Positions 6,581 to 59,563 are shown, counted from the first letter of the stretch. The stretch: 64,000 nt of DNA from Candidatus Omnitrophota bacterium (GCA_016201795.1 JACQCF010000002.1:45122-109121), one strand, 5' to 3'. The notes: generated by a model from the sequence alone, not told the origin. Made by a program: numbers and translations.

Positions 6581-6583
6581 ATC

Positions 6584-23070: not shown

Positions 23071-23073
23071 TCC

Positions 23074-37201: not shown

Positions 37202-37229
37202 TTGACTATCTTAGGGTTTTATTTATAAT
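37202..37229 (+). promoter_or_regulatory. Sigma70-type promoter of the EPS-type MarR regulator gene
   Basis: TTGACT (37202-37207), a 16-nt spacer, then TATAAT (37224-37229). Confidence 0.5.
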
Positions 37230-37251: not shown

Positions 37252-37797
37252 ATGCCCACGACCAATCTTAATGAACATGAATTTGAACTGGTGAACATCG
37301 TCGGTTCTCAGTTGGCCGCCAATCAGCGCGATTTGTCCCGCCAGATGAATCTCTCTTTGGGGATGACCAATATGTTGATGAGGCGGCTTGTCACCAAAGG
37401 ATATATCCGCATCAAACAACTCAACCAGCGCAAGGTGAAGTATATTCTAACCCCTAAAGGTTTTGCGGAAAAGATGCGCAAGTCTGTTCACTACACGCTT
37501 AAAACGATTAATTCTATAGGGTTAATTAAAAAACATCTTTCAAAAATCCTGGGGTCCTTGTATCAGGAGGGAGAAAGAAAATTTTATATCTTAGGGGAGT
37601 CGGATCTGGCGGCCTTGATAGAAATAGTATTAAGGGAACAATGTCAGCATGATTATACCGTTGTTCATATTAAAGACAGGATCCAGGCAACAGGGGAAGG
37701 AGTGATTTTGGTTTGTACTGATCAGCAAGCCAATGGTTCTTCTCCCACTGCATTTAAAGAGATTAATTTGATTGAAAATCTTGCCTATCATGTGTGA
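37252..37797 (+). CDS. Winged-helix transcriptional regulator, EPS-associated MarR-like family
   Basis: EHEFELVNIVGSQLAANQRDLSRQMNLSLGMTNMLMRRLVTKGYIRIKQL...KYILTPKGF matches the EPS-associated MarR (wHTH) pattern, with a C-terminal extension of unknown function. Confidence 0.55.
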   Translation: MPTTNLNEHEFELVNIVGSQLAANQRDLSRQMNLSLGMTNMLMRRLVTKGYIRIKQLNQRKVKYILTPKGFAEKMRKSVHYTLKTINSIGLIKKHLSKILGSLYQEGERKFYILGESDLAALIEIVLREQCQHDYTVVHIKDRIQATGEGVILVCTDQQANGSSPTAFKEINLIENLAYHV

Positions 37798-39602
37798 GCT
37801 CATGGGGCGTATACGGAGATGAGAACTTGTTATCATTAGGTGTTTTTTTACAACGTTTTGGTTATCTGTTGAGGTTGTTGACTACAACGCCCTACTGGGG
37901 CCTTATCTGCATGTTGCAGTTTGTCAGCGGCTTGGCTAGTTTTTTGGGGTTGCCGCTTCTGATTCCTGTGCTGGAAATGATGCAAAGCAATACAGTCTCT
38001 GTGCAGGGGGGCAGTTACGCTAAATTTGTCATTCCTTTTTTGCAGGCATTAGGCCTGAAATTTAATTTTAACAGCATGTTGTTTATGGCTGCTGTACTTA
38101 TGTTATTGGGTCAGCTTTTGGTCAATGCCTCTTCTTTGGTCTGTACCTTTGTCAAAGAGGATCTGCTGGCAGAATACCGCAAGAAGATATTCAGGGCTTA
38201 TGCCTCGGTCGACTGGCAGTGGTTGACGGATCACCATTCGGCCCGTATGTATCATGCGGTGGTGAGGGAGGCCGAGCAGGCCTGCGAGGCCCACATGAAT
38301 GCCCAGCGGATCTTTATCAATTTTTTTCAGATTGCCGTTTATCTGACGATTTCCCTACGCCTCTCCTGGCAGATCACGCTGCTGGCGGTGGGGGTGTATG
38401 TTCTTTTGGGTTTATGCAATGCGGTTAACTTGAATTTCATCAATCAATTTGCCGAGGTGCTTAATCAGAAATTTAAGCAATTTTCGAATGACGCCGTAAG
38501 TTTTCAGCACAATAAGAAATTCATTAAAGTAGCCCTTTTGGGGGAGCGGTTTTTGGCCTCTTTTACCCATGCCATCGACCAGATGTGCCAACTCCGTAAA
38601 CGCCAGATGCTGCACGTTGAACTGCAACGTGCCTGGAACATGATGAGCACGCTGATCCTTTTAGTTGTTATGATTTTTTTCCATCAGGCATTGTCGCTCA
38701 ATTATGCCACCTTGTTATTGATCCTGTTTGTGTTCATGCGGCTGGCGCCTCAATTCGTAGCGCTAGCGGATGTTTATGCGGCTTTGGACATGAGCATCCC
38801 CGTGCACAAGTCTCTGCAGTCACATTTACAGACGCTGGAAGATCACCGGGAGAAAAGTGGTAGCCGGGCTTTCGTACCGGGAAGCGCTTTGCGTTTTGAG
38901 GAAGTGAGCTTTGCTTATCCTAATCAGCCGGCCCTTTTTTCCAATTTACATTTGTCCATTGAGCCTCATACCATGGTTGCCATTGTGGGGAAATCGGGCT
39001 GCGGGAAGTCGACGATTTTGGATTTGCTTTTGGGGTTGCTTGATATCAAAGGAGGAGTCATTTATTATGGTCAAATCCCGCACCATGAGCTTGAAAAAGA
39101 TTCCCTTCGGCGGCACGTTGCTTTTGTCGGACAAAGGCCTTCTCTTTTGGATGGAACCTTGCGGGAGAACTTAATTGTGGCAAAACCCTCCGCGACCAAG
39201 CAAGAGGTTCTGGATGTTTGTCGTCGTGTGCATTTGAAGGAATTTATTGAGGAGCTTCCTCAGGGACTGGATACGGTGGTGGGAGAAAACGGCATCAAAC
39301 TGTCCGGCGGACAGAGGCAGCGGATTGCTCTGGCGCGTTGTTTGCTGCTTGCACCTGACATCCTCATCCTTGATGAAGCTACCAGTGAATTGGATTCGGA
39401 GTCGGAGGCGGTTATTCAAAATACTTTAAAGGAAATGCGTTCGCAAATGACAATCATCATCATTGCGCACCGGCTTTCGACGGTCAAGGCAGCGGATAAA
39501 ATTTATGTCATCGAGCATGGGACGGCTTGTGAGTCGGGCGCCTATGAAGAACTATTGGCGCGCAAGGGGAGATTTTACGATTTGGTTTCTTTGCAGCATT
39601 AA
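37794..39602 (+). CDS. ABC exporter, fused permease/ATPase (MsbA-like type I exporter)
   Basis: Six-TM N-terminal half, then Walker A GKSGCGKST, the signature LSGGQRQRIALARC and Walker B ILILDEATS. Confidence 0.85.
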   Translation: MSSWGVYGDENLLSLGVFLQRFGYLLRLLTTTPYWGLICMLQFVSGLASFLGLPLLIPVLEMMQSNTVSVQGGSYAKFVIPFLQALGLKFNFNSMLFMAAVLMLLGQLLVNASSLVCTFVKEDLLAEYRKKIFRAYASVDWQWLTDHHSARMYHAVVREAEQACEAHMNAQRIFINFFQIAVYLTISLRLSWQITLLAVGVYVLLGLCNAVNLNFINQFAEVLNQKFKQFSNDAVSFQHNKKFIKVALLGERFLASFTHAIDQMCQLRKRQMLHVELQRAWNMMSTLILLVVMIFFHQALSLNYATLLLILFVFMRLAPQFVALADVYAALDMSIPVHKSLQSHLQTLEDHREKSGSRAFVPGSALRFEEVSFAYPNQPALFSNLHLSIEPHTMVAIVGKSGCGKSTILDLLLGLLDIKGGVIYYGQIPHHELEKDSLRRHVAFVGQRPSLLDGTLRENLIVAKPSATKQEVLDVCRRVHLKEFIEELPQGLDTVVGENGIKLSGGQRQRIALARCLLLAPDILILDEATSELDSESEAVIQNTLKEMRSQMTIIIIAHRLSTVKAADKIYVIEHGTACESGAYEELLARKGRFYDLVSLQH

Positions 39603-39639
39603 AAATCCCACTTAAAAACGCGGGATGGAGGGGGAATGC

Positions 39640-40635
39640 ATGATCAATGGCAAAACAATTTTGATTACAGGCGGTACGGGCTCTTTTGGTAATAAATTTA
39701 CGGAGGTAGTTTTAAAGAAATTTAAGCCTAAAAAATTGATTATTTTTAGCAGGGATGAATACAAGCAGCATGAAATGGGTAAAAAATTTTCCGATGATAA
39801 ATATCCTATTCGGTATTTTCTAGGGGATGTGAGAGACCAGGGACGGTTAAACCGCGCCTTTGAAGGGGTGGATTATGTGGTGCATGCCGCGGCGCTCAAG
39901 CAGGTGCCGGCGCTGGAATACAATCCCATGGAGGCAGTCAAGACCAATATCCTTGGCGCGGATAATATTGTCGAAGCAGCCATTGACCAGGGTATAAAGA
40001 AAGTAGTTGTCCTTTCTACGGACAAGGCTTGTAATCCCGTTAATCTTTACGGGGCTACAAAATTGGCGGCGGAAAAAGTGTTTGTCGCGGCCAATGCCTA
40101 CGGCGGCGGCCGTGTCAAATTTTCCGTCGTGCGTTACGGGAATGTCATGGGTTCGCGCGGGAGCGTGATCCCGTTTTTTTTGAGTTTAAAGCATCAGGGC
40201 GCCAAGGAATTCCCCATTACCGATGAACGTATGACCCGCTTTTGGATCACGCTTAAGCAAAGCGCAGAGTTGGTGTTGACGGCGTTGAATTTCGGTATGG
40301 GCGGGGAATGTTTCATCCCTATTATCCCGTCGATGAGGGTGGTTGATTTAGCGCGGGCCATTGACCCTAGGGCAAAATTTAAGATCATCGGTATCCGTCC
40401 CGGCGAGAAATTGCACGAGTCGCTGATTTCCGAGGAGGAAGGGTATAATACCAGGATTTTTAAGGATACGTATGTCATCCTGCCGCAATTTTTTGATAAT
40501 GAACGAGTGCTTCGGTTTTATGAGAAATGTCCCGTCGTCGAACAGAATTTTCTCTACCGCAGCGATAAAAACAAACAATGGATGGATGTGCAAGATTTAA
40601 GAAAGGTTATTGCCCGTGATGATTCCTTACGGTAG
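39640..40635 (+). CDS. pseB: UDP-N-acetylglucosamine 4,6-dehydratase (inverting)
   Basis: GKTILITGGTGSFG...FSRDEYKQHEM...YGATKLAAEK matches PseB/FlaA1 closely along its length. GGAGGG RBS before the ATG at 39640. Confidence 0.85.
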   Translation: MINGKTILITGGTGSFGNKFTEVVLKKFKPKKLIIFSRDEYKQHEMGKKFSDDKYPIRYFLGDVRDQGRLNRAFEGVDYVVHAAALKQVPALEYNPMEAVKTNILGADNIVEAAIDQGIKKVVVLSTDKACNPVNLYGATKLAAEKVFVAANAYGGGRVKFSVVRYGNVMGSRGSVIPFFLSLKHQGAKEFPITDERMTRFWITLKQSAELVLTALNFGMGGECFIPIIPSMRVVDLARAIDPRAKFKIIGIRPGEKLHESLISEEEGYNTRIFKDTYVILPQFFDNERVLRFYEKCPVVEQNFLYRSDKNKQWMDVQDLRKVIARDDSLR

Positions 40636-41791
40636 ACAGACTATTGATGACAAAGACATCCGTGCGGTGGTGCAGGTTTTGCGCTCTGATTGGTTGACCC
40701 AGGGGCCGAAAGTCCTGGAATTCGAAGAAGCGCTATGCCGTTATACCGGTGCAAAATATGCCGTGGTGGTTTCTTCGGGTACGGCTGCATTGCATATCGC
40801 GTGTTTGGCGGCCGGTTTAGGTAAGGGGCAAGAGGCCATGGTCCCTGCCAATACGTTCGTCGCCACCGCCAACGCCGTTTTGTACACAGGGGCGCAGCCC
40901 GTTTTCGCGGATATCGACCATGAAACAGGTAATATCGACCCGCGGGCCATTATGAAAATGATGAATCGCACCACCAGGGCGATTATACCGGTGCATTTCG
41001 GCGGCAACCCTTGCGCCATGGAAGACATTTACGGTTTGGCCAAGAAAAGAAAGATCACGATTATCGAAGACGCGTGTCATGCTTTAGGCGCAGCGTATAA
41101 GTCTGGGGGTAAATGGTGGAAAATCGGTTCCTGCCGTCATTCGGATATGACGATTTTTAGTTTTCATCCTCTTAAAGCCATTACCACGGCCGAAGGCGGA
41201 GCAGTGCTGACTAATGACAAAAGGCTTTATCAGCGGTTTCTTAAGTTGCGCAGTCACGGGGTAACGAAGGAGCCATCTGATTTTGAGAACCGCAACGCCC
41301 ATGACGTGGGGCCGTGGTACTACGAGATGCAGGAGCTTGGTTTTAATTTCCGAATCACGGATCTGCAATGTGCGCTGGGGGTTTCCCAGCTTAAAAAAGC
41401 GGATGGGTTTGTCCGTAAGCGCACCCGGATCGCACAGCTTTATCGCAAGGCCTGGGCCCACGGCTCATACTTTGATCTTCCGTCGCAACAGAACAATGGC
41501 GTGTCGGCATGGCATTTGTTCCCCATCCGGCTTAAAGGGCGTTTTGTACAGCGCCGGAAAGAAATGTTTTGTTGGTTAAGAGATTTGGGGTTGGGGGTGC
41601 AGGTTCACTATATTCCGGTGTATTGGCAGCCGTATTATGCCCGATTAGGGTATGCCAAGGGATCGTGTCCGGTGGCGGAAGATTTTTACCGTCGGGAAAT
41701 CAGCCTGCCGTTGTATCCGGCCATGACGTCTGCCGATGTAAGGCGCGTGATTGAATGCGTAAATAAAGCAGGAGCAGAGGTTTTAAAATAA
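40610..41791 (+). CDS. pseC: UDP-4-amino-4,6-dideoxy-N-acetyl-beta-L-altrosamine transaminase (DegT family)
   Basis: IPYGRQTIDDKDIRAVVQVLRSDWLTQGPKV N-terminus typical of PseC. PLP lysine block FSFHPLKAITTAEGG. Confidence 0.8.
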   Translation: MPVMIPYGRQTIDDKDIRAVVQVLRSDWLTQGPKVLEFEEALCRYTGAKYAVVVSSGTAALHIACLAAGLGKGQEAMVPANTFVATANAVLYTGAQPVFADIDHETGNIDPRAIMKMMNRTTRAIIPVHFGGNPCAMEDIYGLAKKRKITIIEDACHALGAAYKSGGKWWKIGSCRHSDMTIFSFHPLKAITTAEGGAVLTNDKRLYQRFLKLRSHGVTKEPSDFENRNAHDVGPWYYEMQELGFNFRITDLQCALGVSQLKKADGFVRKRTRIAQLYRKAWAHGSYFDLPSQQNNGVSAWHLFPIRLKGRFVQRRKEMFCWLRDLGLGVQVHYIPVYWQPYYARLGYAKGSCPVAEDFYRREISLPLYPAMTSADVRRVIECVNKAGAEVLK

Positions 41792-41805
41792 GGAGCAAAG
41801 ATAGA

Positions 41806-42549
41806 ATGGCAAGAAAAGGAAAATTTGTTGCGAGTATAGAGGCAAGGGTTGGCTCAACACGATTACCCGCTAAAGTGTTGCGGGAGATTATGGGAAGGTC
41901 CATGCTGGAATTGATGATCGAACGGGTCAAGAAAGCCCGACGTATCGACGAAATTATTGTGGCGACTTCTGTTAACCCTAAGGACGACGTGTTGGAGCAG
42001 TTGGCTCTGCGCATGGGAGTTAAATGTTACCGCGGCAGCGAAGAAGATGTTTTGTCCAGGGTATTGGAGGCAGTCAAAAGCGTTGCGGGGGATCATATCA
42101 TTGAGCTCTGGGGAGACACGCCGCTTATTGATCCGGCCATTATTGATGATGCCGTCCGGTATTATCAGGATAATGACTTTGACTGTGTGGGGACGGACAA
42201 AGGGTATCCTTGGGGTATGAGCATATTAATTTTTCCCACCGCCATTTTGGAGGAAGTCCATGGGATCACCAACGATCCCGTTGACAGGGAAAATGTTTCT
42301 AATTATATTTATGAACATCCACAGAGGTATACGATTAGTAATTTGCCATGCCCTCGACATTTATACCGGCCTGAGGTACGTCTGACGGTTGATGAGGGTC
42401 CTGATTTTGAATTCGTATCGAGGATTTTTGAAGCGCTACATCCCAATAATCCGTATTTTGACACCCAGAACATTCTCATGTTTTTGGATGCCCATCCCGA
42501 ACTATTGGAGATCAACAAGACGATTAAACAAAAGAAATTGAGGGTATAG
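41806..42549 (+). CDS. pseF: Cytidylyltransferase of the SpsF/PseF family (putative CMP-pseudaminic acid synthetase)
   Basis: ARVGSTRLPAKVL...IDEIIVATS motif of CTP_transf_3 (NeuA/SpsF-like) enzymes. Located inside the pse cluster. Confidence 0.55.
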   Translation: MARKGKFVASIEARVGSTRLPAKVLREIMGRSMLELMIERVKKARRIDEIIVATSVNPKDDVLEQLALRMGVKCYRGSEEDVLSRVLEAVKSVAGDHIIELWGDTPLIDPAIIDDAVRYYQDNDFDCVGTDKGYPWGMSILIFPTAILEEVHGITNDPVDRENVSNYIYEHPQRYTISNLPCPRHLYRPEVRLTVDEGPDFEFVSRIFEALHPNNPYFDTQNILMFLDAHPELLEINKTIKQKKLRV

Positions 42550-42554
42550 AAATT

Positions 42555-43568
42555 ATGAAGTTAAAAGCAGCAGTCATAGGTTGCGGGCGTATCGCCATCG
42601 GTTTCGATGACGACCCCAAACGCAAGATGGTAGCGACCCATATCGGCGCATATCAGCATGTGAAAGGCGTTGAGGTCGTCGCCGTGTGCGATGTGGACGG
42701 TAGCCGTGTGGATAAAGTATGCCGCAAGCGTGGTATCACCAAAGGTTATACGGATTACCTGAAGATGTTACGCCAGGAAAAAGTCGATATGGTCAGCGTG
42801 TGCACGCCGCCCAAGACACATGCGTCCATTGTGCTGGACATTGCCCGGCACGGTTTAGCTAAAGCAATTTTTTGCGAAAAACCCATGGCTCATTCGCTTC
42901 AGGATGCCAGGGCCATGATCGACGCCTGTGCCGAGCACAATATTATATTACAGATTGACCATCAGCGCCGTTTCGATCAGATGCATCAGGCCATCAGGGC
43001 AAAAATTCAAAGAGGCGCGTGGGGTAGGGTTCAGCGTGCGAATTTTTATTATTCAGCGGGAGTGCGTAATACTGGTTCTCATATGTTTGACCTTTTGCGT
43101 TTCTTTTTTGGGGATGCCGACTGGGTGCAGGCCTATGCGAGCGCCAATCCCTCACGCCGGCCTGATGATCCGAACCTAGACGGGTTTGTGCGTTTTCCCA
43201 ATGGGCTTTTGGCGTCCTTTCAGGCTTTAGATCATACGCGATATTTAATTTTTGAATTGGATTGTTATTTTCAACGGAGCCGTTTGGTTCTTAAGCACAG
43301 CGGCTTTGACGCTGAATTTTATAAGGTAGGGAAAAGTTCGTTTTTCAGCGGTTACCGCGAGTTGGAAAAGGGCAAGGCTCCTTTTAAGAAGGATTATGAG
43401 AGGTCATTGATGGTTCGCGGGGTCGAAGAATTAAGCCGTTGCCTGGGCAATGGGAGAAAAAGTATTTCTTCAGGGGAAGATGGTTTGCGTGCGATGGAAC
43501 TCATTGAGTTAAGTATCAAATCTGCGCAACATCATGGAAAACAGATGTCAGTATCGCCTAAGAGATAG
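42555..43568 (+). CDS. Gfo/Idh/MocA family NAD(P)-dependent oxidoreductase
   Basis: LKAAVIGCGRIAIG Rossmann N-terminus, the EKP motif (CEKPMAHS) and a C-terminal alpha/beta domain. Confidence 0.7.
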   Translation: MKLKAAVIGCGRIAIGFDDDPKRKMVATHIGAYQHVKGVEVVAVCDVDGSRVDKVCRKRGITKGYTDYLKMLRQEKVDMVSVCTPPKTHASIVLDIARHGLAKAIFCEKPMAHSLQDARAMIDACAEHNIILQIDHQRRFDQMHQAIRAKIQRGAWGRVQRANFYYSAGVRNTGSHMFDLLRFFFGDADWVQAYASANPSRRPDDPNLDGFVRFPNGLLASFQALDHTRYLIFELDCYFQRSRLVLKHSGFDAEFYKVGKSSFFSGYRELEKGKAPFKKDYERSLMVRGVEELSRCLGNGRKSISSGEDGLRAMELIELSIKSAQHHGKQMSVSPKR

Positions 43569-43574
43569 AAGGAG

Positions 43575-44858
43575 TTGTTGATGAAAGTTTTAGCCGTTCA
43601 TGGTGGGGATAAAGTTAGGACAAAACCGTTTTTTACGGGTGGTGCCATTATTGGAGAGGAAGAGCGACGGCGCGTTAAAGAGGTCCTAGACAGCGGTATT
43701 TTGTCTGGATTCCTGGCACAGGCTGACGCGAAGTTCTTAGGTGGTAAACAGGTTCTAGAATTTGAGAAGATACTCAGGAATTATTTTAGCATGCCTTACG
43801 CCGTGACAGTCAATTCGGCAACAGCTGGTCTTCATGTGGCCTTGGGAGCTTGTGGAGTCTCTCCCGGTGATGAGGTGATCGTGAGTCCATATACCATGTG
43901 CGCTTCCGCCACCGCGATTGTTATGATGAATGGCGTTCCGGTTTTTGCGGATATTAATGAACACAATTTTTGTTTCGATCCTGAAAGTGTCCGCCGATGT
44001 ATCACCCCACGCACCAAAGGTATTGTCGTGGTGCATCTTTTTGGTGGGGCAGCGGATATGGATGCCATCATGGTGATTGCCAAGGAACATAACCTTTTTG
44101 TAGTTGAGGATTGCGCCCAGGCGCCGGGTGCCAAATATAAAGGCCGGCATGTGGGGACATTCGGCGATGCGGGGGTTTTTAGTCTCAATCAGAACAAGAC
44201 GATTACCTGCGGTGAGGGTGGATTTGTGCTTACGAGGGATGCAAAGATCGCTTTGCGGATACAGTTGATGCGCAATCACGGCGAAGTGGTGGTACAACAG
44301 ATGAATGTGGAAGATATTTCCAATATCGTCGGTTTTAATTACCGCATGACAGAGTTGGAAGCGGCGGTGGCTATCGGTCAATTTAAAAATTTAGATACTT
44401 GGAACACCCATCGGCGGAATTTGGCCAATTACTTGACCAAGCAACTATCCAAGTTTGATAGCTTAGAATGTCCCAATGTACCGTTGGATATTGAACATTC
44501 GTATTTTGTATATCCTATTAAATTAAAGGTTGGCCAATTGGGCGTTAGCAGGGATACTTTTCTTAAGGCAATCCATGCAGAAGGGATTCCTTTGAGCGGT
44601 GGGTACGTGAGACCGATCTATTGGGAACCAATGTTCCAGAAAAAGATTGCTTATGGTAGGCAGGGATATCCGTTCACACCTCCCGTTTACGCAGGTTCTG
44701 TGGATTACAGCCGAGGATTGTGCCCAGTGTGTGAACGGATGTATGAACAGGAACTGATGTTGACGCCTGTTTGCCGTTACCCGAATACTAAAGAAGACAT
44801 GGATGATGTCGTTCATGCGTTTGATAAGGTATTGTCTCATTTAGACGAGTTAAAATAA
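43575..44858 (+). CDS. DegT/ArnB-like PLP-dependent aminotransferase (long form, 427 aa)
   Basis: ATAGLHVAL, VSPYTMCASATA, EDCAQAPGA and the Lys block FSLNQNKTITCGEGG. Confidence 0.7.
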   Translation: MLMKVLAVHGGDKVRTKPFFTGGAIIGEEERRRVKEVLDSGILSGFLAQADAKFLGGKQVLEFEKILRNYFSMPYAVTVNSATAGLHVALGACGVSPGDEVIVSPYTMCASATAIVMMNGVPVFADINEHNFCFDPESVRRCITPRTKGIVVVHLFGGAADMDAIMVIAKEHNLFVVEDCAQAPGAKYKGRHVGTFGDAGVFSLNQNKTITCGEGGFVLTRDAKIALRIQLMRNHGEVVVQQMNVEDISNIVGFNYRMTELEAAVAIGQFKNLDTWNTHRRNLANYLTKQLSKFDSLECPNVPLDIEHSYFVYPIKLKVGQLGVSRDTFLKAIHAEGIPLSGGYVRPIYWEPMFQKKIAYGRQGYPFTPPVYAGSVDYSRGLCPVCERMYEQELMLTPVCRYPNTKEDMDDVVHAFDKVLSHLDELK

Positions 44859-44877
44859 ATTCAAAGAGACATGTTTT

Positions 44878-46341
44878 ATGATTAGAGTTCTGATCTTAAC
44901 CGAAGGCGGTGGTATTTTAGGCTGGGGGCATGTAGCCAGGTGCTGTGCGATTACGCAAGGACTGGAGAAATATGGCTGTTTATGGGAAGTTTTCGTCAAT
45001 GCCCAAGGGGATTTACCGTCTTTTACTGACGGGTCCAACTGGAGTCGGGAGGATTGGCGCAATATCAATGAGCGTTTGGCAGGCCTTATCAGCTCGTCGG
45101 ATTACGTGATTGTTGATTCATATATAACGTCCGCAGATATTTATCAACAGATTAGTTCTTTGAATAAGAATTTGGTCGTTATCGACGATAATAATCGGAT
45201 TAGTTATCCGCCATGTATTGTTGTTAACCCGAATGTGTATGGGGACCACATGCCATATGCGGACAAATATGAAGTATGGGCAGGCCTACGGTACATTCTT
45301 TTACGTGAGCCATTTTGGAATGCGCAGCCTAAACCCGTAGGCTCTGTGCATGCACTTTTATTGGTACTGGGTGGTGGTGATTCTCATGGGTTAAAGAAGG
45401 AGATCTTGCGGTTTTTGGTGCGACACTATCCGCTATTAAAGAAGTATGTCGTTGTCTGTGTCAGGGAAACATCATTGGAAGATATAACCAAAGAAGCGGA
45501 TGGTAATACATCCTTCTTTAAGAATCTAGATGCCAGAGCCATGTGCGATCTGATGGGGCGTGCAGATATGGCTATATCTGCTGGTGGGCAGACGCTCGGT
45601 GAACTTACTAGGTTGGGAGTGCCGACTGTCGCCATAAGCTTGGCAGATAATCAAAAACGCAATATCGCGGCATGGCAAGCGCAAGGCTTTGTACAGGTAG
45701 CGGATGAGAAAGACAGCGTCGGGATACAACAGGTCATCGGCACATACATCGAACGTTTAAACAGCCTTAAGCAGGATCGCAACGCAAGTCATGTGGCTAG
45801 CCTTGTGGATGGTCAAGGCGTCAAACGTTTGGTTGAAAATTTAATAGGCCGTCGCACATTGTCTTTGCGTAGGGCTTCGCTCGAAGACTGTGAAGATATT
45901 TGGAGATGGCGTAATGATGTTTCGGTGCGCAAAAGTTCTTTTTCACAAAAAGAGATTCCATTTGACGGTCATAAGAAGTGGTTTGCACAAAAAATGAATG
46001 ACCCTGGTGTTATTTTTTATATTGCCCAGCATAAACATGAAGGTGGTGTAGGCCAGGTGCGGTTTGAAATTCAGCAGGATAAGTCCGCATCCGTTCATGT
46101 GAATATGAACCCACAGTACATTGGTCGCGGGTTGGGGGCTTATGTGATTGCCGAGGCCACGCGGACGCTTATGAAGGAGCGCCCCACGGTTTTATCTATT
46201 CGGGCCGAGGTTTTGGCGGATAACATTGCTTCACGGAAAGTTTTTGAGAAGGCGGGTTATCAGTTGCAGGGCAATGAGATCAAGGAAGATAAACAGATCA
46301 TTGTATTTTCGGTGAAAAAACATGAAACCCATATCCTTTAA
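44878..46341 (+). CDS. pseG: PseG-PseH fusion: UDP-2,4-diacetamido-2,4,6-trideoxy-beta-L-altropyranose hydrolase fused to a GNAT N-acetyltransferase
   Basis: N-terminal GT28-like PseG region (ILGWGHVARC..., LVLGGGDS, AISAGGQTLGEL). A C-terminal roughly 160-aa GNAT domain (QVRFEIQQD...NPQYIGRGLGAYVIAEA...NIASRKVFEKAGYQ). Confidence 0.7.
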   Translation: MIRVLILTEGGGILGWGHVARCCAITQGLEKYGCLWEVFVNAQGDLPSFTDGSNWSREDWRNINERLAGLISSSDYVIVDSYITSADIYQQISSLNKNLVVIDDNNRISYPPCIVVNPNVYGDHMPYADKYEVWAGLRYILLREPFWNAQPKPVGSVHALLLVLGGGDSHGLKKEILRFLVRHYPLLKKYVVVCVRETSLEDITKEADGNTSFFKNLDARAMCDLMGRADMAISAGGQTLGELTRLGVPTVAISLADNQKRNIAAWQAQGFVQVADEKDSVGIQQVIGTYIERLNSLKQDRNASHVASLVDGQGVKRLVENLIGRRTLSLRRASLEDCEDIWRWRNDVSVRKSSFSQKEIPFDGHKKWFAQKMNDPGVIFYIAQHKHEGGVGQVRFEIQQDKSASVHVNMNPQYIGRGLGAYVIAEATRTLMKERPTVLSIRAEVLADNIASRKVFEKAGYQLQGNEIKEDKQIIVFSVKKHETHIL

Positions 46342-47356
46342 ACAGTTAAAAGAGTGTTTTATTATCGCCGAGATTTCTGCCAATCACGGTCAGAATTTCC
46401 AACGGGCCATTCAATTGATTAAATTGGCCAAAGAATGTGGTGCGGATGCGGTTAAGTTTCAATGTTATACACCGGATACATTAACGATCGATGTCGACAA
46501 TAAATATTTCCAGATCAAACATCCCCAGTGGGGTGGGCAGACGCTTTACCGCTTGTATCAGCATGCTTATACGCCTTGGGAGTGGTTTCCGCGGTTAAAG
46601 AAGGCCGCCCATGAGGCGCGCATTCATTTTTTTTCTACAGCTTTTGACCGTACCTCTGTTGATTTTTTGGAAAAGATAGGGGTGGATTTGCATAAGATCG
46701 CTTCTTTTGAATTGAATGATTTACCGCTTATTGATTACGTTGCGCGTACGAAAAAACCTCTTATTTTATCAACAGGGATGGCCTCTTTAGAAGAAATTCG
46801 TGAGGCGGTGGCTGTTGCTCGCAAATCGGGGGCGAAGGATTTGGCTTTGTTGAGGTGTGTAAGTAATTATCCAGCGGATCCTAAGGATATGAATTTGCGT
46901 ACGATGGTAGATATGCATAAGAGGTTTAAATGTTGTGTGGGGCTCTCGGACCATACATTGGGGGTAGGGGTAGCGGTGGCTTCGGTGGCGTTGGGGGCCA
47001 TGGTTATTGAAAAACATTTTACGCTTTCACGCAAGATCAAAACCCCGGATAGTTTTTTTTCACTGGAGCCGGAAGAATTAAAAGAAATGGTTGATAATGT
47101 GCGTTTGGCGCAAAGGGCTTTGGGGCATGTTTCGTATGCTTGTACACCGGCAGAGAAAGCCAGTCTTAAATTCCGGCGTTCCTTGTTTGTTGTCCAGGAC
47201 ATCAAGAAAGGTGACGTTTTTTCCCTTTTAAATATAAGGTCTATACGCCCCGGGCATGGCCTGTCGCCCAAACACTGGGACACAACCATCGGCAAAAAGG
47301 CGAAATGCGCTGTTAAACGAGGGACTCCGTTAACGATGTCCATGATAGGGATTTAA
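46322..47356 (+). CDS. pseI: Pseudaminic acid synthase (NeuB family, with SAF domain)
   Basis: IIAEISANHGQNFQRAIQLIKLAKECGADAVKFQ N-terminus, the GLSDHT motif and a C-terminal SAF domain. Confidence 0.85.
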   Translation: MKPISFKQLKECFIIAEISANHGQNFQRAIQLIKLAKECGADAVKFQCYTPDTLTIDVDNKYFQIKHPQWGGQTLYRLYQHAYTPWEWFPRLKKAAHEARIHFFSTAFDRTSVDFLEKIGVDLHKIASFELNDLPLIDYVARTKKPLILSTGMASLEEIREAVAVARKSGAKDLALLRCVSNYPADPKDMNLRTMVDMHKRFKCCVGLSDHTLGVGVAVASVALGAMVIEKHFTLSRKIKTPDSFFSLEPEELKEMVDNVRLAQRALGHVSYACTPAEKASLKFRRSLFVVQDIKKGDVFSLLNIRSIRPGHGLSPKHWDTTIGKKAKCAVKRGTPLTMSMIGI

Positions 47357-48310
47357 ATGGAAATTAAGGGATGTTCACAAGAATATTGGGATTTGTTTGT
47401 GGATGCCTCTGCTCAAGGGACGGTTTTTAATAAGAGTTTTTTCTTGAAGAGTTACGGCCATCCTGTCAGCTATTTGATTTGTTATAAAGGTGAAGAGGTA
47501 GTGGCCGGCTTCGGGCTTGTCAAAGAAGGCGATAATATCCGTCCAATGCCGTATTCTGTGTTAGGGGGAATTATTTTTAAGGATTTGGTGGAGCTTAATA
47601 ATTACCGCCGCAATGAAACGATTTTTATGGCGCTGGAGGCATTTGCCCAGTATTTATTTGATCATTATACCGAGGTGGACTTCACCAATCATTGGGATAT
47701 TACGGACATGCGTGCATTTGACTGGGTCAATTATCACGATCGGCAAAAAGGGTATTATCAAATTTTTCCGCGTTACACCAGCCTGCTGGATATTTCAGAT
47801 CCGGCTAATACCGACGGTTATGCGCGTAAACGCATTCGTGAGCTGGATAAAGGTGTGGATGAAGGGTATAAATTTTTTACCAGGGGAATTGATGATATCA
47901 GTCTTCTCAGTCGGCTGCATGAGATGAATTTTATCCGCCAGGGAATTACAAGGTCCGAGGAAGAAAAGCGAGCACTGGTGCATATTTGTGAAAACCTCAT
48001 GAATGCCCAAGCAGGGACATTGCTGGCCACTTATGTGAATGATGAACCGGCGGTGGTGAGTTTTTTTGTCTACGATCAACACAGGGCCTATCATTTGTTT
48101 GTGGGGGCTGATCTTGATTTAAAGGATTTGGGCGTGGGAACCAAAAATTTTTATGACAGTTGTTTATTTTTAAACAGTCAACTTGGGTATAAGGAATTGG
48201 ATTTGGTAGGGGCCAATAGCCCATTAAGGTCAAATTATAAATTAAGTTACGGTGGTCGGCTGGTGCCGTATTTTCGGATCAAGAAAGTTCCTCCGCAAGG
48301 GCAAGGATAG
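47357..48310 (+). CDS. FemAB-like GNAT-fold acyl/aminoacyl transferase (Acetyltransf_6-like)
   Basis: Roughly 317 aa with FemAB/BioF2-like GNAT features. Located directly after pseI. Confidence 0.4.
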   Translation: MEIKGCSQEYWDLFVDASAQGTVFNKSFFLKSYGHPVSYLICYKGEEVVAGFGLVKEGDNIRPMPYSVLGGIIFKDLVELNNYRRNETIFMALEAFAQYLFDHYTEVDFTNHWDITDMRAFDWVNYHDRQKGYYQIFPRYTSLLDISDPANTDGYARKRIRELDKGVDEGYKFFTRGIDDISLLSRLHEMNFIRQGITRSEEEKRALVHICENLMNAQAGTLLATYVNDEPAVVSFFVYDQHRAYHLFVGADLDLKDLGVGTKNFYDSCLFLNSQLGYKELDLVGANSPLRSNYKLSYGGRLVPYFRIKKVPPQGQG

Positions 48311-48322
48311 GGTATTAGATTT

Positions 48323-49372
48323 ATGAAGCATCATTTGTATTATGAAAGTTTGGATTGGGGTACTTATTGGAAGAATTTTTTCCGTCAGGACAAGGACCGT
48401 TTTTTATGCGCGTTACGGGAAGATTTTGCGACAGAGGATATTTTTTTAACTCGTTCGGGGCGTACCGGTATTATTTTATCGTTAAAGGCGTTTGGTTTGA
48501 CCAGGGAAGATGAAGTTTTGGTGCCGCCGTTTATGAGTACTTGTGTTTTGGACTCGGTCAATCAGGTGGCCATGTCTTCCCGGCGTTTGACGGATCGCAC
48601 TAAGGCGGTTTTATTTTATCACCACTGGGGATACTCTCAGAATTATGCGAAAGCGCAGGAGCTGTTGCGTTCCAGAAAATTATGGGTTATTGAGGATTGT
48701 GCTCATGGGGTGTGGGGTAGATCTCAGGGAATATCGATGGGGGCTTTTGGCCATACCGCTATCTTCTCTTTGTCGAAAATTTTTGAGATGACTTATGCCG
48801 GCGCCTTAAGGATCAATGACGTGGCATTGCTTTCCAGAATAGAAGAAGCGTTAAGTGCTAAGGTTTCATTGAAGGATGCATGCGAATCATTATCGGGGGA
48901 ATTAACATATCTGAGTTTTTATAATACCCCCCTGGCACGACGCAAGGAAACCGACATGTTAGTTGGCATATCAAAATGGTATGCGACGCTTTTAATGTAC
49001 CCTTGTTTGACAACCGTCAGGGGTCGTCTAGCCCGTCATAAGGCAGAATTGCACGAGGTGTTCGGCAACCAGAACAAACATTTTTTGTCTTTATTAAAAA
49101 ATGCCCGTAATCGTTCATTTATGCTGCCGGGCGATGAAGAAGCAACGATGGCGCCGTTATGTTTTCCCATCCTATCGGATGATGAGGGTTTTTTGAACAG
49201 CGTTGATCAATGGCTTAAACAGAGGAATATCTTTACCGGTATTTATCATTTTGACGTCAACCGTTGCATGTTTAACCCGGATTACAAAAAATGCGTGCCT
49301 GTCCCATTGTATGCTTCTTTGTCAGACGGGCTTTATGAAGATTTTATCAGGGATTTCAAAGGGGGATTTTGA
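48323..49372 (+). CDS. Divergent DegT-like PLP-dependent enzyme
   Basis: REDEVLVPPFMSTCV and an FSLSK Lys block resemble the DegT fold, but the protein is shorter and the motifs diverge. Confidence 0.35.
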   Translation: MKHHLYYESLDWGTYWKNFFRQDKDRFLCALREDFATEDIFLTRSGRTGIILSLKAFGLTREDEVLVPPFMSTCVLDSVNQVAMSSRRLTDRTKAVLFYHHWGYSQNYAKAQELLRSRKLWVIEDCAHGVWGRSQGISMGAFGHTAIFSLSKIFEMTYAGALRINDVALLSRIEEALSAKVSLKDACESLSGELTYLSFYNTPLARRKETDMLVGISKWYATLLMYPCLTTVRGRLARHKAELHEVFGNQNKHFLSLLKNARNRSFMLPGDEEATMAPLCFPILSDDEGFLNSVDQWLKQRNIFTGIYHFDVNRCMFNPDYKKCVPVPLYASLSDGLYEDFIRDFKGGF

Positions 49373-50103
49373 TGTATTCTAATCAAGATTCTATTGATAT
49401 GTTTAATCAGATGGTGACGATGGGTTCCTATTATGGATCCGGCCGTCCAGTGCCCGTGGCCCCTGAAGTTATTATTGAAGATATTTGTTCAAAAATTCCT
49501 TTACTAAAGTCCGATGTTTTATTGGATGTCGGCTGCGGGACGGGTGTTGTGACTATCCCGTTGTCCAAGCGCTGCAAAAGTATTTACGCTTTGGACGCGG
49601 CAGAAAAGGTTCTTGAGATGGCCAAGCAACGGTGTCGTCAGGAAAATGTCACCAATGTTGCTTATTACCAGGGCAGTGCGCTGCATCTTCCATTTGAAGA
49701 TAATTCTTTTGACCATGTGTTGATGTATGCCGTGATTCATTATTTGGAGAATGAGCAACAGGTCTATCAGTGTGTGGGGGAATTGGTGCGCGTTTGTAAA
49801 GCTGGTGGACGGGTTTTGATTACTGAAATACCTGACGAGTGCGTCCGTCATGAATTTGACCAAAGGACAAAGACCCCACAAGAACAGCAGATACTCGATG
49901 CGTTTCAATCCAACCGGGGCGAATATGATCGGTTGTTTAAAGAATATGTTAAGAAATTTCCCAACCCAAACAGTTTAGTATTGGATTGTGAGCGTATTGT
50001 TAAAGAAGGCGTACGGCTTGGCTGTGAAGGTAACGTGTGCCGTCAGGATATCCGTCAGCCCTTTTCATTAACCCGTCGGGATGTATTATTAATCAAGAAG
50101 TAG
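49369..50103 (+). CDS. Class I SAM-dependent methyltransferase (type 11)
   Basis: LLDVGCGTGVVT motif I and VLMYAVIHYL motif. Confidence 0.65.
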   Translation: MMYSNQDSIDMFNQMVTMGSYYGSGRPVPVAPEVIIEDICSKIPLLKSDVLLDVGCGTGVVTIPLSKRCKSIYALDAAEKVLEMAKQRCRQENVTNVAYYQGSALHLPFEDNSFDHVLMYAVIHYLENEQQVYQCVGELVRVCKAGGRVLITEIPDECVRHEFDQRTKTPQEQQILDAFQSNRGEYDRLFKEYVKKFPNPNSLVLDCERIVKEGVRLGCEGNVCRQDIRQPFSLTRRDVLLIKK

Positions 50104-50106: not shown

Positions 50107-51717
50107 TTGGACGTGTTTATGGATTTATTTCAAAAATTCAACAGGGTTTATGCGAAGGCAAAGCATTATTGCAGCAGCTTTGTCATAGATCCTCATTCAT
50201 TGAGGTTCATTCGTTATAACAAAAGCATCTGGCGGGATTATAAAAATAAGAATCCGCAGGGCATTGTTTTGTTTTATTATTTTGATATCCCTTCCGCTTT
50301 GATTAGTGGCAGTTATTTTACCAATCTTCTTGTCAAGAAACATAATGCCCAGATCGTGGCGTTTTCTTCCACCCGCAAGGGGTTTCCATGGGGTATTTTC
50401 TATTGGAAGCGCGACATGGTTTATCGTTCGTTTAATACGCAAAAGATTATTGGTACGGTATTAGACCGATCACAGGAATTACGCAAGCAACATATCTACC
50501 AGGATATAATCAAGGGTATCAAGACAAAGAAAGATGTGTACGATATTAAAGTGGATGGTGTTTGGATCGGGGTTGATATCTATGAGACTTATTTGCGGAT
50601 ATGCCGTAAGCCTACCGTAGATTTAGATGATCCTAGGCTTTTTAGAATGATTAAAGAAGGGGTGGGGATTTATTTGTTTTGGCGGGACTATGTCGCCAAG
50701 AATCAGGTCAAGGCCATCGTCGTTAGTCACGATGCTTACATTTACGAAAATATACTTTGTAAAATCGGATATAAAAATAATATTCCTGTTTATATGCCTA
50801 ATATCAGGGGGTTATGGTTTGCCAAAACGGTTTATTCGGCGACTAATCCTTTGTTTAAGAATTATCGTGCAATGTTTAGGAGACTTTCCCTTCAAGAGCA
50901 GGCCAAAAGCTTAGAGCTTGCTAAATGTCAGTTGCAACGTAGGCTGGCAGGAGAGACTGGCGTTGACATGGCCTATTCGCTCAAGTCCGCTTTTAGCTTA
51001 CCCAACAAGTCAGAACAGGTGCTGCGCAAGAGCGATAAGATCAAGGTCCTTATTTGCAGCCACTGTTTTTATGATAATCCCCAAGCGTACGGTGAAATGC
51101 TGTTTATCGACTTTTACGACTGGCTTTGTTTTTTAGGAAAAATATCTCAAGAGACCGATTACGATTGGTATATCAAAATGCATCCAGATCCTTTGCCTGG
51201 GACGGATCAGATTATCCGGGAGATTATTGCCAAATATCCTAAGATCACTTTTATACCTCCTGAAACATCCCATCTTCAACTGGTTTCGGAAGGTATCAAT
51301 TTTGTTTTGACCGCCTATGGGTCAGTCGGGCATGAGCTTGCTATGTTAGGGGTTCAGGTGATTAATGCCGGTTATAATCCGCATTCTGCCTACGATTTTA
51401 ACTGGCACCCGCAGTCTCTTGCTGAGTATGAGAATTACCTTCTACACCTAGATCAATTGAAAAAAGAAATTTCCAAGGAAGATGTTTATGAATTTTATTA
51501 CATGCATTATTACTATACGATCGCTGACGGTCTTTTTTTAAAATCTTACCGTCAATATATCACCGAATCTACAAAGAATCAGGAACCAGGAATTGTTGTT
51601 TATGAACATTTTTTAAAAGACATTAACCGGCAGAAGCATCAAGAAATTTGTACTAGTTTATTGCAATTTATTGAATCTGGAAAGAACTATTATTTAAGCA
51701 GAGGATTAGAAAATTAA
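50107..51717 (+). CDS. Hypothetical protein, possible GT-B-like capsule or nonulosonic-acid transferase
   Basis: 536 aa. The C-terminal half has a Rossmann-like alternation (KIKVLICSH..., FVLTAYGSVGHELAMLGVQVIN) reminiscent of TagF/KpsS-type transferases. No firm motif. Confidence 0.3.
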   Translation: MDVFMDLFQKFNRVYAKAKHYCSSFVIDPHSLRFIRYNKSIWRDYKNKNPQGIVLFYYFDIPSALISGSYFTNLLVKKHNAQIVAFSSTRKGFPWGIFYWKRDMVYRSFNTQKIIGTVLDRSQELRKQHIYQDIIKGIKTKKDVYDIKVDGVWIGVDIYETYLRICRKPTVDLDDPRLFRMIKEGVGIYLFWRDYVAKNQVKAIVVSHDAYIYENILCKIGYKNNIPVYMPNIRGLWFAKTVYSATNPLFKNYRAMFRRLSLQEQAKSLELAKCQLQRRLAGETGVDMAYSLKSAFSLPNKSEQVLRKSDKIKVLICSHCFYDNPQAYGEMLFIDFYDWLCFLGKISQETDYDWYIKMHPDPLPGTDQIIREIIAKYPKITFIPPETSHLQLVSEGINFVLTAYGSVGHELAMLGVQVINAGYNPHSAYDFNWHPQSLAEYENYLLHLDQLKKEISKEDVYEFYYMHYYYTIADGLFLKSYRQYITESTKNQEPGIVVYEHFLKDINRQKHQEICTSLLQFIESGKNYYLSRGLEN

Positions 51718-53393: not shown

Positions 53394-53402
53394 AGGAGAC
53401 AC

Positions 53403-56370: not shown

Positions 56371-56380
56371 AGGATCACTG

Positions 56381-59560: not shown

Positions 59561-59563
59561 AGG

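Follow-up and report, generated by a model that had tools for sequence, protein, structure and literature searches.

Does the pseudaminic acid (Pse) gene cluster of an uncultured Omnitrophota bacterium encode only the familiar Pse5Ac7Ac, or do the other genes packed into it indicate a derivatised sugar? The window analysed is a 64,000-nt stretch of this genome. With moderate confidence, we read the cluster as the first half of a single long operon for glycan synthesis at 37252-62857, making a CMP-activated pseudaminic acid derivative; the core enzymes are assigned by homology, and tailoring roles are proposed by inference for a Gfo/Idh/MocA oxidoreductase (Gfo), two DegT-family proteins (DegT2 and DegT3), a Fem-like transferase and a methyltransferase (MT11). 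By analogy with known systems, the additional module probably equips Pse with a further amino group that carries an amino acid.

Gene array and core pathway

Nine close-packed open reading frames (ORFs), all on the + strand like every gene described below, occupy 39625-49372, with gaps or overlaps of at most 26 nt between neighbours, and the E-values of their domain matches are far beyond chance. An earlier note, made from the DNA alone, had placed all nine within 15 nt of the coordinates found here; its identification of the first gene as pseB holds, but the ORF begins at 39625 and not at 39640. Because the co-directional array spans 37252-62857, the borders of that original finding (39640-49372) cut through it. 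The array begins with a winged-helix (HTH_24/MarR-like) regulator (37252..37797; weak Pfam matches), orthologues of which head related loci (L020, with 70% identity, and also L019, L021 and L047; L-numbers denote loci compared with the window). A promoter-like site with 11 of 12 matches is located at 37202-37229, but such sites are no commoner in the region than in shuffled sequence. The second gene encodes an ABC exporter whose permease and ATPase domains are fused (37794..39602; PF00005, PF00664; HepA/MsbA/PglK-like), 66% identical to its orthologue in L020 and a candidate exporter of a glycan or lipid-linked glycan; its NCBIfam matches (HepA_fam, 333 bits; PglK, 212 bits) are all under cut-off. 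Further downstream, 53403-62857 encodes a second sugar pathway, for a C-methylated deoxy-amino sugar.

A complete gene set for pseudaminic acid, a sialic-acid-like sugar, is confirmed at the level of homology. PseB, the inverting UDP-GlcNAc 4,6-dehydratase (39625..40635; TIGR03589, 482.7 bits, cut-off 407.75; PF02719, E 1.6e-98), PseC, the UDP-4-amino-4,6-dideoxy-N-acetyl-beta-L-altrosamine transaminase (40610..41791; TIGR03588, 508.3 bits, cut-off 423.5), which keeps the lysine of SFxxxK, and PseI, the pseudaminic acid synthase with NeuB and SAF domains (46322..47356; TIGR03586, 463 bits, cut-off 340.25), all exceed the NCBIfam equivalog cut-offs. A UDP-sugar hydrolase, PseG, is fused to a PseH-like GNAT N-acetyltransferase (44878..46341); the PseG half (TIGR03590 over residues 3-262, 117.6 bits; GWGH motif at residues 15-18; 25% identity to Caulobacter FlmD) and the GNAT half (TIGR03585 over residues 334-466, 54.3 bits) are both recognized under cut-off. 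The fusion, which the earlier note had singled out, exists but is ordinary and already known: RefSeq uses the product name 'bifunctional ... hydrolase/GNAT family N-acetyltransferase' for a protein with 31% identity to it over 469 aa. By homology, PseB and PseC would turn UDP-GlcNAc into a 4-amino-6-deoxy-L-altrose nucleotide; N-acetylation by the GNAT half of the fusion and removal of UDP by its PseG half would follow, and PseI would form Pse by condensing the sugar with PEP. The PseBCHGIF pathway of Campylobacter and Helicobacter, which makes CMP-Pse5Ac7Ac, has orthologues of PseB, PseC and PseI and the PseG and PseH domains in common with the window, where gene order likewise tracks the pathway; the window differs in carrying PseG and PseH in one polypeptide, in having an FlmC-type enzyme in place of the absent PseF, and in at least five extra interleaved genes.

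That FlmC/SpsF-type cytidylyltransferase is CTP3 (41806..42549; PF02348, CTP_transf_3, E 3.8e-28). Its identification as PseF was rejected (26.4 bits with the PseF model, against a cut-off of 205.7), and with it goes the PseF-like label first given to this gene, the other Pse assignments standing. CTP3 is 34% identical to Caulobacter FlmC over its full length (230 aa, E 6e-43), and its best PDB match is 6oew, 'Cytidylyltransferase'. No further CTP_transf_3 gene is present among the window ORFs scanned against Pfam (those outside 22084-29036). The Flm pathway of Caulobacter crescentus (FlmA, B, H, D, NeuB and FlmC) also ends with a non-PseF cytidylyltransferase: FlmC fills the PseF slot, an activity deduced from reconstitution of the pathway and not from the enzyme singly, and the six-enzyme pathway that FlmC completes is enough to glycosylate flagellin in E. 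coli (PMC7591256). CTP3 is a candidate CMP-nonulosonate synthetase that would take the place of PseF and form the CMP sugar, a simple reading that is complicated by L103, which carries two FlmC-type cytidylyltransferases.

Unlike the window, C. crescentus has flmC-flmD without adjoining Gfo-DegT2, Fem or PLP_IMCC1989 genes. Core genes alone are enough elsewhere (PMC7591256), and the Omnitrophota bacterium might likewise make plain Pse5Ac7Ac, the extra genes being unrelated or inactive passengers; this is hardly credible for intact, close-packed ORFs with conserved catalytic motifs that are syntenic across phyla.

The oxidoreductase-aminotransferase pair

The interval 42555-44858 contains both the Gfo/Idh/MocA oxidoreductase and the second DegT-type aminotransferase expected there, as two genes. 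Gfo, an NAD(P) oxidoreductase (42555..43568; PF01408, E 7.9e-24; PF22725; PF02894), has GxGxxA, EKP and H176 invariant across six orthologues, and its partner DegT2, a PLP aminotransferase of 427 aa (43575..44858; PF01041, E 9e-95), retains the PLP lysine. Neither attains a curated family cut-off: no NCBIfam model does so on Gfo, the top match being inositol 2-dehydrogenase (101 bits), and DegT2 is under cut-off with the models for PseC (226 bits) and LegC (220 bits). The best PDB matches of DegT2 are 8gyh, perosamine synthases, 2-deoxy-scyllo-inosose aminotransferases and the Kdo8N transaminase KdnA (5k8b); WbpE and NtdA structures are also matched significantly.

The neighbourhood of the pair is strongly conserved. 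Of 37 evaluable metagenomic loci, 33 encode a DegT2 orthologue (43-78% identity) immediately downstream of that of Gfo. NeuB was found in 14, PseB in 12 and PseC in 10 of the 21 pair loci of at least 8 kb; all three were absent from the 19 control loci, whose Gfo genes are not orthologues. A CTP_transf_3 gene abuts Gfo-DegT2 in 16 of 22 loci and is within about 5 kb in the remaining six, whereas the 19 controls have no cytidylyltransferase or NeuB-family neighbours. The abutting cytidylyltransferase is FlmC-type in the window, L015, L018, L012 and L103, and of another type in L105, L033, L049 and L053. The pair also accompanies NeuB/LegI-type and short NeuB synthases, which indicates that it is not Pse-specific, and its conservation is equally high in Pse- and Leg/Neu-type loci. 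Also counting against a Pse-tailoring role are gaps in the core set: PseG is not detectable in L020, and neither PseG nor PseI is encoded within 10 kb in L018. The extra genes are a conserved, uncharacterised module rather than loose additions, and the derivatised Pse proposed in the earlier note is supported by this synteny with NeuB-family synthase and cytidylyltransferase genes in dozens of loci, the product itself being predicted.

By analogy, the closest precedents for Gfo-DegT2 are ElaABC and EpaAB, which carry out redox tailoring at C8 of CMP-nonulosonates. ElaA, a Gfo/Idh/MocA protein encoded beside the synthetase ElaB in Acinetobacter KL49 and Vibrio vulnificus, is the proposed catalyst of C8 oxidation in CMP-Leg (PMC13656337); EpaA (a CTP_transf_3-aldo/keto-reductase fusion) and EpaB (a short-chain dehydrogenase/reductase, SDR) of an Acinetobacter prophage convert Pse to 8-epi-Pse (PMC12053666). 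As in the window, a cytidylyltransferase gene adjoins a Gfo/Idh/MocA or aldo/keto-reductase gene in a nonulosonate locus, and the activated sugar is proposed to be oxidised at a side-chain hydroxyl; an Epa-like set of CTP3, aldo/keto reductase and SDR immediately precedes Gfo-DegT2 in L020. The candidate ElaA-like Gfo of L012 has only 21% identity to that of the window. The window differs from both systems in pairing the oxidoreductase with a PLP aminotransferase instead of an SDR, and therefore amination is predicted rather than epimerisation. Following the logic of ElaABC with an aminotransferase replacing the reductase, Gfo would oxidise a free secondary hydroxyl of the nonulosonate (Pse or CMP-Pse) to a ketone, likelier at C8 by analogy with ElaA and EpaAB than at the alternative C4, and DegT2 would transaminate this ketone to yield a triamino nonulosonate, of which a literature search found no description.

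The pair might instead belong to the core route, with DegT2 installing the ordinary second amine, at C7 of the nonulosonate; its substrate would be the PseB product or a post-condensation intermediate whose 7-hydroxyl Gfo has oxidised. Where PseC is present too, DegT2 would be redundant or an alternative branch. In four loci (L019, L029, L062 and L027), PseB and DegT2 are encoded without a PseC inside the 10-kb flanks, so DegT2 might supply the C7 amine there, and the scores with the PseC and LegC models and the association with several synthase types fit such a role. We nevertheless consider it unlikely. DegT2 coexists with a PseC above or near cut-off in the window, L015, L018, L020, L021, L047, L050 and L058-L061; its orthologues are no more divergent without PseC (57% identity) than with it (45-64%); the 4-keto product of PseB needs no oxidoreductase, yet Gfo is nearly always there; and PseC could be encoded beyond the 10-kb flanks.

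Alcohol oxidation coupled to DegT-family transamination is also the chemistry of KdnB/KdnA (Kdo to 8-amino-Kdo in Shewanella), WbpB/WbpE, GnnA/GnnB and NtdC/NtdA, none of whose curated models attains its cut-off on the window proteins. KdnB is an iron-dependent alcohol dehydrogenase and not a Gfo/Idh/MocA protein, and the WbpB/E and Gnn pairs, found in other genomic contexts, have C3 of UDP-hexoses as their target. 3-Amino sugars are nonetheless the classic product of Gfo/Idh/MocA and DegT pairs, and Gfo-DegT2 could, with the Fem, PLP and methyltransferase genes, build another sugar for this glycan, by 3-oxidation and 3-amination of UDP-GlcNAc in the manner of WbpB/WbpE or GnnA/GnnB or by supplying the second sugar pathway located downstream. 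The archaeal UDP-GlcNAc 3-dehydrogenase model matches Gfo and WbpE structures match DegT2, but the former match (98 bits) is far under the cut-off of 450 and covers only the N-terminal Rossmann domain, and the latter (130 bits) is surpassed by perosamine synthase, the inosose aminotransferases and KdnA (184-210 bits). A separate UDP-sugar route for the middle genes is made quite unlikely by the FlmC-type CTP3 and by the tracking of the pair with NeuB and cytidylyltransferase genes, absent from all controls, rather than with the downstream deoxysugar genes; moreover, the pyranose ring oxygen of a nonulosonate cannot come from a 3-amino hexose. L050 is a flagellin island whose content ahead of flagellin and FliD is limited to pse genes, Gfo-DegT2, a 301-aa ORF, Fem and a methyltransferase; it lacks the second sugar pathway, and no other sugar pathway that the module might serve was found there.

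Proposed acyl transfer and further tailoring

The clustered genes were first thought to be followed by a Fem-like and a DegT-like gene ending at 49372; both are present (47357-49372; PF13480 and PF01041), but the tailoring set continues to 50103 and 51717. The Fem-like tandem-GNAT transferase (47357..48310) matches PF13480 only (E 9.7e-09). In a Foldseek search its AlphaFold2 model (pLDDT 93.2) superposed best on Sbb17/Sba18 with bound streptothrisamine (TMq 0.67) and then on FemX, and tandem GNATs such as 2wpw were also matched. Sbb17/Sba18 are aminoacyl-tRNA-dependent peptide synthases acting on amino sugars, and FemX is likewise an aminoacyl-tRNA transferase. Although the fold alone may accommodate an acyl-CoA donor, the model suggests an N-aminoacyl (or acyl) transferase that would acylate the new amine, an aminoacyl-tRNA probably serving as the amino acid donor; the substrate, the position (C8 or C4) and the acyl donor are all predicted. 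Orthologues are encoded together with Gfo-DegT2 in distant lineages (L103, L104, L105, L020, L050 and L101 from Azospirillum), and this co-occurrence and the structural matches fit the aminoacyl substituent guessed at in the earlier note.

Alternatively, Gfo-DegT2 could make a small amino compound, for example an aminocyclitol or amino acid-like precursor of a side chain, that the Fem-like enzyme joins to an existing amine of Pse, methylation following and the sugar remaining untouched. The PDB matches of DegT2 include enzymes with nucleotide-free substrates (2-deoxy-scyllo-inosose aminotransferases, KdnA and NtdA), the top NCBIfam match of Gfo is to an inositol dehydrogenase, and the pair is conserved alike in Pse- and Leg/Neu-type loci. 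Such a route is very unlikely: these scores are all generic and under cut-off, the tight association of the pair with cytidylyltransferase genes of two types indicates a CMP-linked substrate, and the ElaABC and EpaAB precedents work on the nonulosonate itself.

On the preferred reading of amination and acylation of Pse, two more proteins may modify the acyl substituent further. DegT3 (48323..49372), divergent for a DegT-fold PLP protein and of the PLP_IMCC1989 type, is matched by PF01041 in its central part only (E 4.9e-15); the IEDCAH aspartate is retained, and the lysine of FSL[SA]KIF is two residues ahead of the canonical position. Its orthologues in L103 (70% identity) and L105 (52%) bear PF27889 (PLP_IMCC1989). 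This order of genes, PLP immediately after Fem-like, is what the models describe for FemAB_IMCC1989 (TIGR04421) and PLP_IMCC1989 (TIGR04422), a pair for which no recorded function was found, but the window Fem matches neither TIGR04421 nor PF02388, and DegT3 is under the TIGR04422 cut-off (45.7 bits against 75). The other protein is the UbiE-like SAM methyltransferase MT11 (49369..50103; PF08241, E 3.6e-26), orthologues of which follow Fem-PLP in L103 (71% identity), L105 (52%) and L104 (49%); the whole block Fem-PLP_IMCC1989-MT-unk530 recurs downstream of Gfo-DegT2 in these three loci. Plasmid p6 of Azospirillum argentinense has adjacent Fem, methyltransferase and DegT2 genes, and the DegT2-like protein there carries a fused methyltransferase domain.

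The next gene, unk536 (50107..51717), belongs to no Pfam or NCBIfam family, and its product is recognizable from a structure model as a KpsC-like GT-B-fold protein; such a protein, like Fem, DegT3 and the methyltransferase, recurs with Gfo-DegT2. It has no detectable sequence similarity to the CMP-Kdo-dependent GT-B beta-Kdo transferases KpsC/KpsS and is about 200 residues longer than the KpsC domain, but its model matches CMP-Kdo transferases, which makes it a candidate CMP-ulosonate-dependent glycosyltransferase that would transfer the completed sugar.

Core pathway and cytidylyltransferase

All of the pathway genes named in the earlier note were found in the window by Pfam/NCBIfam domain annotation of open reading frames (ORFs). 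PseB, the inverting UDP-GlcNAc 4,6-dehydratase, matches TIGR03589 at 482.7 bits (cut-off 407.75); PseC, the C4 aminotransferase, matches TIGR03588 at 508.3 bits (cut-off 423.5); and PseI, the pseudaminic acid (Pse) synthase, matches TIGR03586 at 463 bits (cut-off 340.25). Between PseC and a 487-aa PseG-GNAT fusion (44878-46341) lie a CTP_transf_3 cytidylyltransferase (CTP3, 41806-42549), a Gfo/Idh/MocA oxidoreductase (Gfo, 42555-43568) and a 427-aa aminotransferase (DegT2, 43575-44858), and downstream of PseI are a PF13480 ("Acetyltransf_6") protein (Fem) and then the 349-aa DegT3. The fusion is matched by the PseG model TIGR03590 on residues 3-262 (117.6 bits, under the cut-off of 153.55) and by the PseH model TIGR03585 on residues 334-466 (54.3 bits, under the cut-off of 93.1); it carries GWGH, a GxGH motif, at residues 15-18, and its GNAT domain (PF13302) spans residues 328-462. 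The fused PseG-PseH gene pointed out previously does exist, but it is ordinary, RefSeq already naming such bifunctional proteins. A tblastn search found full-length, one-piece matches in plasmid records, one of them a Parabacteroides distasonis gene within the cluster pseB-pseC-GT2-pseF-[fusion]-pseI, named by RefSeq [quoted passage not shown]; the window protein is 31% identical to the RefSeq-named bifunctional PseG/GNAT protein. PseG/GNAT fusions also occur in five of the loci compared with the window (L019, L050, L060, L061 and L103).

The cytidylyltransferase had been described as SpsF/PseF-like. A CTP_transf_3 enzyme is indeed present, but the PseF model TIGR03584 rejects it (26.4 bits, cut-off 205.7), which rules out PseF, and CTP3 was reassigned to the FlmC type. 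It and Caulobacter FlmC are 34% identical across 230 of 238 residues (E 6e-43), the FlmC sequence being taken from the synthetic operon in the PMC7591256 supplement. According to PMC7591256, FlmC has no homology to PseF, and its own CMP-Pse synthetase activity was deduced from reconstitution with six genes. The PseF step is assigned by sequence similarity to CTP3 as a candidate CMP-Pse synthetase, and since CTP3 is of the FlmC type, the core Pse pathway is predicted to be complete, its last step being taken by a known alternative enzyme. No further CTP_transf_3 gene was found by Pfam among the window ORFs scanned, which comprised those outside 22084-29036. In locus L103 (980-4928) there are two FlmC-type cytidylyltransferases, one before PseG/GNAT-NeuB and one before Gfo, and simple substitution for PseF does not explain them.

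The Gfo-DegT2 pair in nonulosonate loci

DegT2 has many orthologues of 57-78% identity, and all six that were looked up have a Gfo gene just 5' and a CTP_transf_3 gene nearby. Metagenome contigs were scanned with six aligned Gfo orthologues as the query, and the 80 loci returned were searched with the window proteins and small profiles. In 33 of the 37 evaluable loci where Gfo has a strong orthologue, a DegT2 orthologue (43-61% identity) adjoins it on the same strand. Of these strong-Gfo loci, 21 are at least 8 kb long; 14 of the 21 possess a NeuB-family synthase, 12 PseB and ten PseC. None of the three was found in the 19 controls, loci of similar length that have only a non-orthologous Gfo. 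Of the 22 loci with sufficient flank, 16 have a CTP_transf_3 gene abutting the pair (a count that includes L029 and L046, with overlapping ORF coordinates) and the other six have one within about 5 kb; depending on the locus, the abutting enzyme is of the FlmC type or another type. The accompanying synthases are PseI-type in the window, L015, L019 and L020, NeuB/LegI-type in L033 and L038, and divergent in L012, L029 and L062. Because of this synteny with NeuB, cytidylyltransferases and varied synthases, the pair is linked to CMP-nonulosonate synthesis generally and not to one UDP-hexose route. When the contigs were scanned with DegT2 alone, only distant, non-syntenic DegT genes (L001-L010) were returned.

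Gfo retains the dinucleotide-binding glycines, the EKP lysine and the conserved histidine, and no curated family model reaches its cut-off on this protein. DegT2 retains the PLP lysine, and its PDB matches to 8gyh, perosamine synthases, 2-deoxy-scyllo-inosose aminotransferases and the Kdo8N transaminase KdnA rank above those to Helicobacter pylori PseC or WbpE. A UDP-GlcNAc 3-amination route like those of WbpB/WbpE and GnnA/GnnB is unlikely, because the models score poorly (98 bits on Gfo for UDP-GlcNAc 3-dehydrogenase, cut-off 450), because the synteny points elsewhere, the genomic context being NeuB and a cytidylyltransferase rather than UDP-hexose genes, and because a 3-amino hexose is unable to furnish the ring oxygen of a nonulosonate.

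Two published systems tailor nonulosonates at C8. ElaB makes the CMP-activated legionaminic-type nonulosonate (CMP-Leg), for which C8 oxidation by ElaA (Gfo/Idh/MocA) is proposed, with ElaC (SDR) re-reducing the product to 8-epi-Leg (PMC13656337); Pse is converted to 8-epi-Pse by EpaA, in which CTP_transf_3 and an aldo/keto reductase are fused, together with EpaB (SDR), as shown by NMR (PMC12053666). The window resembles them in that an NAD(P) oxidoreductase gene adjoins a candidate CMP-nonulosonate synthetase gene (CTP3-Gfo) in a NeuB locus, as it does in 16/22 loci, but differs in that the next gene after Gfo encodes a DegT aminotransferase instead of a re-reducing SDR or aldo/keto reductase, neither of which is found within 41806-50103. 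In L020, the locus most closely related to the window, Gfo-DegT2 comes directly after CTP3, an aldo/keto reductase and an SDR. None of the chains that Gfo matched by sequence in the PDB bears the name ElaA; the fourth match is 3ezy, the entry used to solve ElaA. A possible sulfated variant of the tailoring was noted in L012 (11284-16221), where DegT2 is followed by APS kinase, sulfotransferase, GNAT and amidase genes, and preceded on the 5' side by an Ela-cassette-like NeuB(short)-Gfo-SDR-CTP3.

The Fem block and a possible tailoring route

The tailoring set extends beyond the region first delimited (39640-49372), as a block of Fem (47357-48310), DegT3 (48323-49372), a UbiE-like methyltransferase (49369-50103) and a KpsC-like 536-aa protein (50107-51717). 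In L103, L105 and L104, the loci of window-Fem homologues, the order is [CTP]-Gfo-(X)-DegT2-...-Fem-PLP_IMCC1989-methyltransferase-(~530 aa), the PLP_IMCC1989 ORF of L104 (10942-12016) being present though uncalled in the source annotation; the window has the same order with PseG/GNAT and PseI inserted. X is a family of ~300-390 aa with no Pfam match that adjoins DegT2 in several loci (L105 8842-9915, L104 1218-2267, L050 12289-13194, L103 5895-7058) and is absent from the window. In L104 (1-12762), the DegT2-like gene and the Fem-PLP-methyltransferase block are separated by genes for ACPS, acyl carrier protein, AMP-ligase, Fe-ADH, LuxE, LuxC, AAC(3)-type N-acetyltransferase and DUF4910, a set that hints at a fatty-acyl substituent.

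Distant, full-length Fem orthologues (29-39% identity) accompany Gfo-DegT2 in L020 and L050. The order in L050 is DnaB, Alr, PseB-PseC-CTP-MT-PseG/GNAT-PseI-Gfo-DegT2-301aa-MT-Fem (MT, methyltransferase), then flagellin and FliD, and no other sugar pathway that the module might serve was found in this locus. A version from a cultured organism, with another distant Fem orthologue, is on plasmid p6 of Azospirillum argentinense MTCC4035 (NZ_CP032327.1, 12420-24653), in the order short NeuB, methyltransferase, Fem, DegT2-like: the NeuB-family protein has 232 aa and no SAF domain, the DegT2-like protein (780 aa) carries a fused methyltransferase domain, and of two CTP_transf_3 genes one has a Gfo gene next to it on the other strand. 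Neither PseB nor PseC was found in this plasmid segment.

Fem matches PF13480 but not PF02388 or TIGR04421. Its AlphaFold2 model (pLDDT 93.2) has the tandem-GNAT Fem fold (Foldseek probability 1.00) and superposes best (TMq 0.67) on the aminoacyl-tRNA-dependent peptide synthases Sbb17/Sba18 with streptothrisamine, an amino sugar, with FemX next. Sequence searches of the PDB with the Fem profile and the 536-aa protein gave only chance-level matches, leaving fold comparison alone informative. DegT3 is matched by the DegT model in its central part only and by the PLP_IMCC1989 model TIGR04422 at 45.7 bits (cut-off 75); precomputed matches assign PF27889 to its orthologues (70% and 52% identity), and DegT3 is predicted to belong to the PLP_IMCC1989 type. 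The PLP aspartate is kept, with a lysine two residues before the canonical position. DegT3 was also considered as a dead aminotransferase, a reading that was not adopted since the PLP-binding aspartate and the nearby lysine are conserved among orthologues.

On the logic of ElaABC and EpaAB, and of the CTP3-aldo/keto reductase-SDR arrangement in L020, CTP3 would make CMP-Pse, Gfo would oxidize a side-chain hydroxyl (by analogy more probably at C8, with C4 as the alternative), DegT2 would turn the ketone into an amine, Fem would acylate this amine, probably from aminoacyl-tRNA, DegT3 and the methyltransferase would modify the substituent, and the KpsC-like protein would transfer the finished sugar. 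From the homology and synteny shown, we infer the substrate, position and donor of tailoring by analogy. Against this scheme, PseG was not detected in L020, PseG and PseI are not nearby in L018, and L103 has two enzymes of the FlmC type. DegT2 may instead supply the ordinary second amine of the nonulosonate, as L019, L029, L062 and L027 possess PseB and DegT2 with no PseC within 10 kb, or Gfo-DegT2 may make a side-chain precursor. The wider proposal is a tentative one that we consider somewhat improbable: CTP-Gfo-DegT2-Fem-PLP_IMCC1989-MT might be a widespread module making an undescribed class of CMP-nonulosonate with a third backbone amino group (8- or 4-amino-deoxy Pse/Leg) and a tRNA-derived, methylated aminoacyl substituent, to be transferred by a new family of KpsC-like glycosyltransferases.

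Neither the Pse core nor the PseG/GNAT fusion nor the FlmC-type enzyme is new. The recurrent Gfo-DegT2-Fem-PLP-MT module of nonulosonate loci was not found in the searchable literature and has no functional name in curated libraries; searches likewise found no literature linking pseudaminic acid with Gfo/Idh/MocA, on PDB 8GYH, on triamino nonulosonates or on Fem-type enzymes acting on nonulosonates, and a 2026 Clostridium Pse paper does not mention the module genes. Nonulosonic acids cap flagellins, capsules and lipopolysaccharides, and their substituents decide immune and phage recognition. The module recurs in Omnitrophota, in unclassified metagenomic lineages and on the Azospirillum plasmid. 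If it does aminate and aminoacylate a CMP-nonulosonate, the known chemistry of this sugar class would widen to include the first Fem-type aminoacyl-tRNA chemistry on sialic-acid-like sugars, functions would be gained for orphan families (PLP_IMCC1989, the PF13480 Fem-like clade and the ~530-aa family that lacks a Pfam model), and enzymes for modified sialic-acid analogues would become available. The cultured carrier, A. argentinense MTCC4035, makes the idea directly testable.

The gene array and its surroundings

The region first delimited takes in nine of the 25 ORFs of an array, all on the + strand, that spans 37252-62857, with neighbouring ORFs separated or overlapping by no more than 26 nt. 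Promoter-like sites in the region are not commoner than in shuffled sequence, so operon limits were not drawn from them. The downstream half of the same operon (51721-62857) looks like a second sugar pathway and is syntenic with L105; it encodes two sugar C-methyltransferases (53403-54668 and 58346-59560), a DegT protein (56381-57490), a cupin isomerase/epimerase (59564-60016), a 331-aa ORF of no family (52398-53393), a GMD-like dehydratase, a GT2 protein, further methyltransferases and three SDR epimerases.

On the 5' side of the array are housekeeping genes (PriA, Fmt, GAPDH, MetE and MTHFR), and a 1480-aa ORF on the + strand (24594-29036) is located amid housekeeping genes. Farther 5', a separate locus (422-19160) resembles those for LPS-core/O-antigen synthesis, with an SDR epimerase, GT2 and GT4 genes, two DegT genes, and genes at 2153-3685 for a B12-binding radical SAM enzyme, at 3682-5387 for a GHMP kinase and an NTP transferase, at 13209-14261 for a GT9 heptosyltransferase and at 15400-16752 for a Wzy_C/O-antigen-ligase protein; two long ORFs of this locus (7707-9380 and 10746-12623) have no Pfam match.
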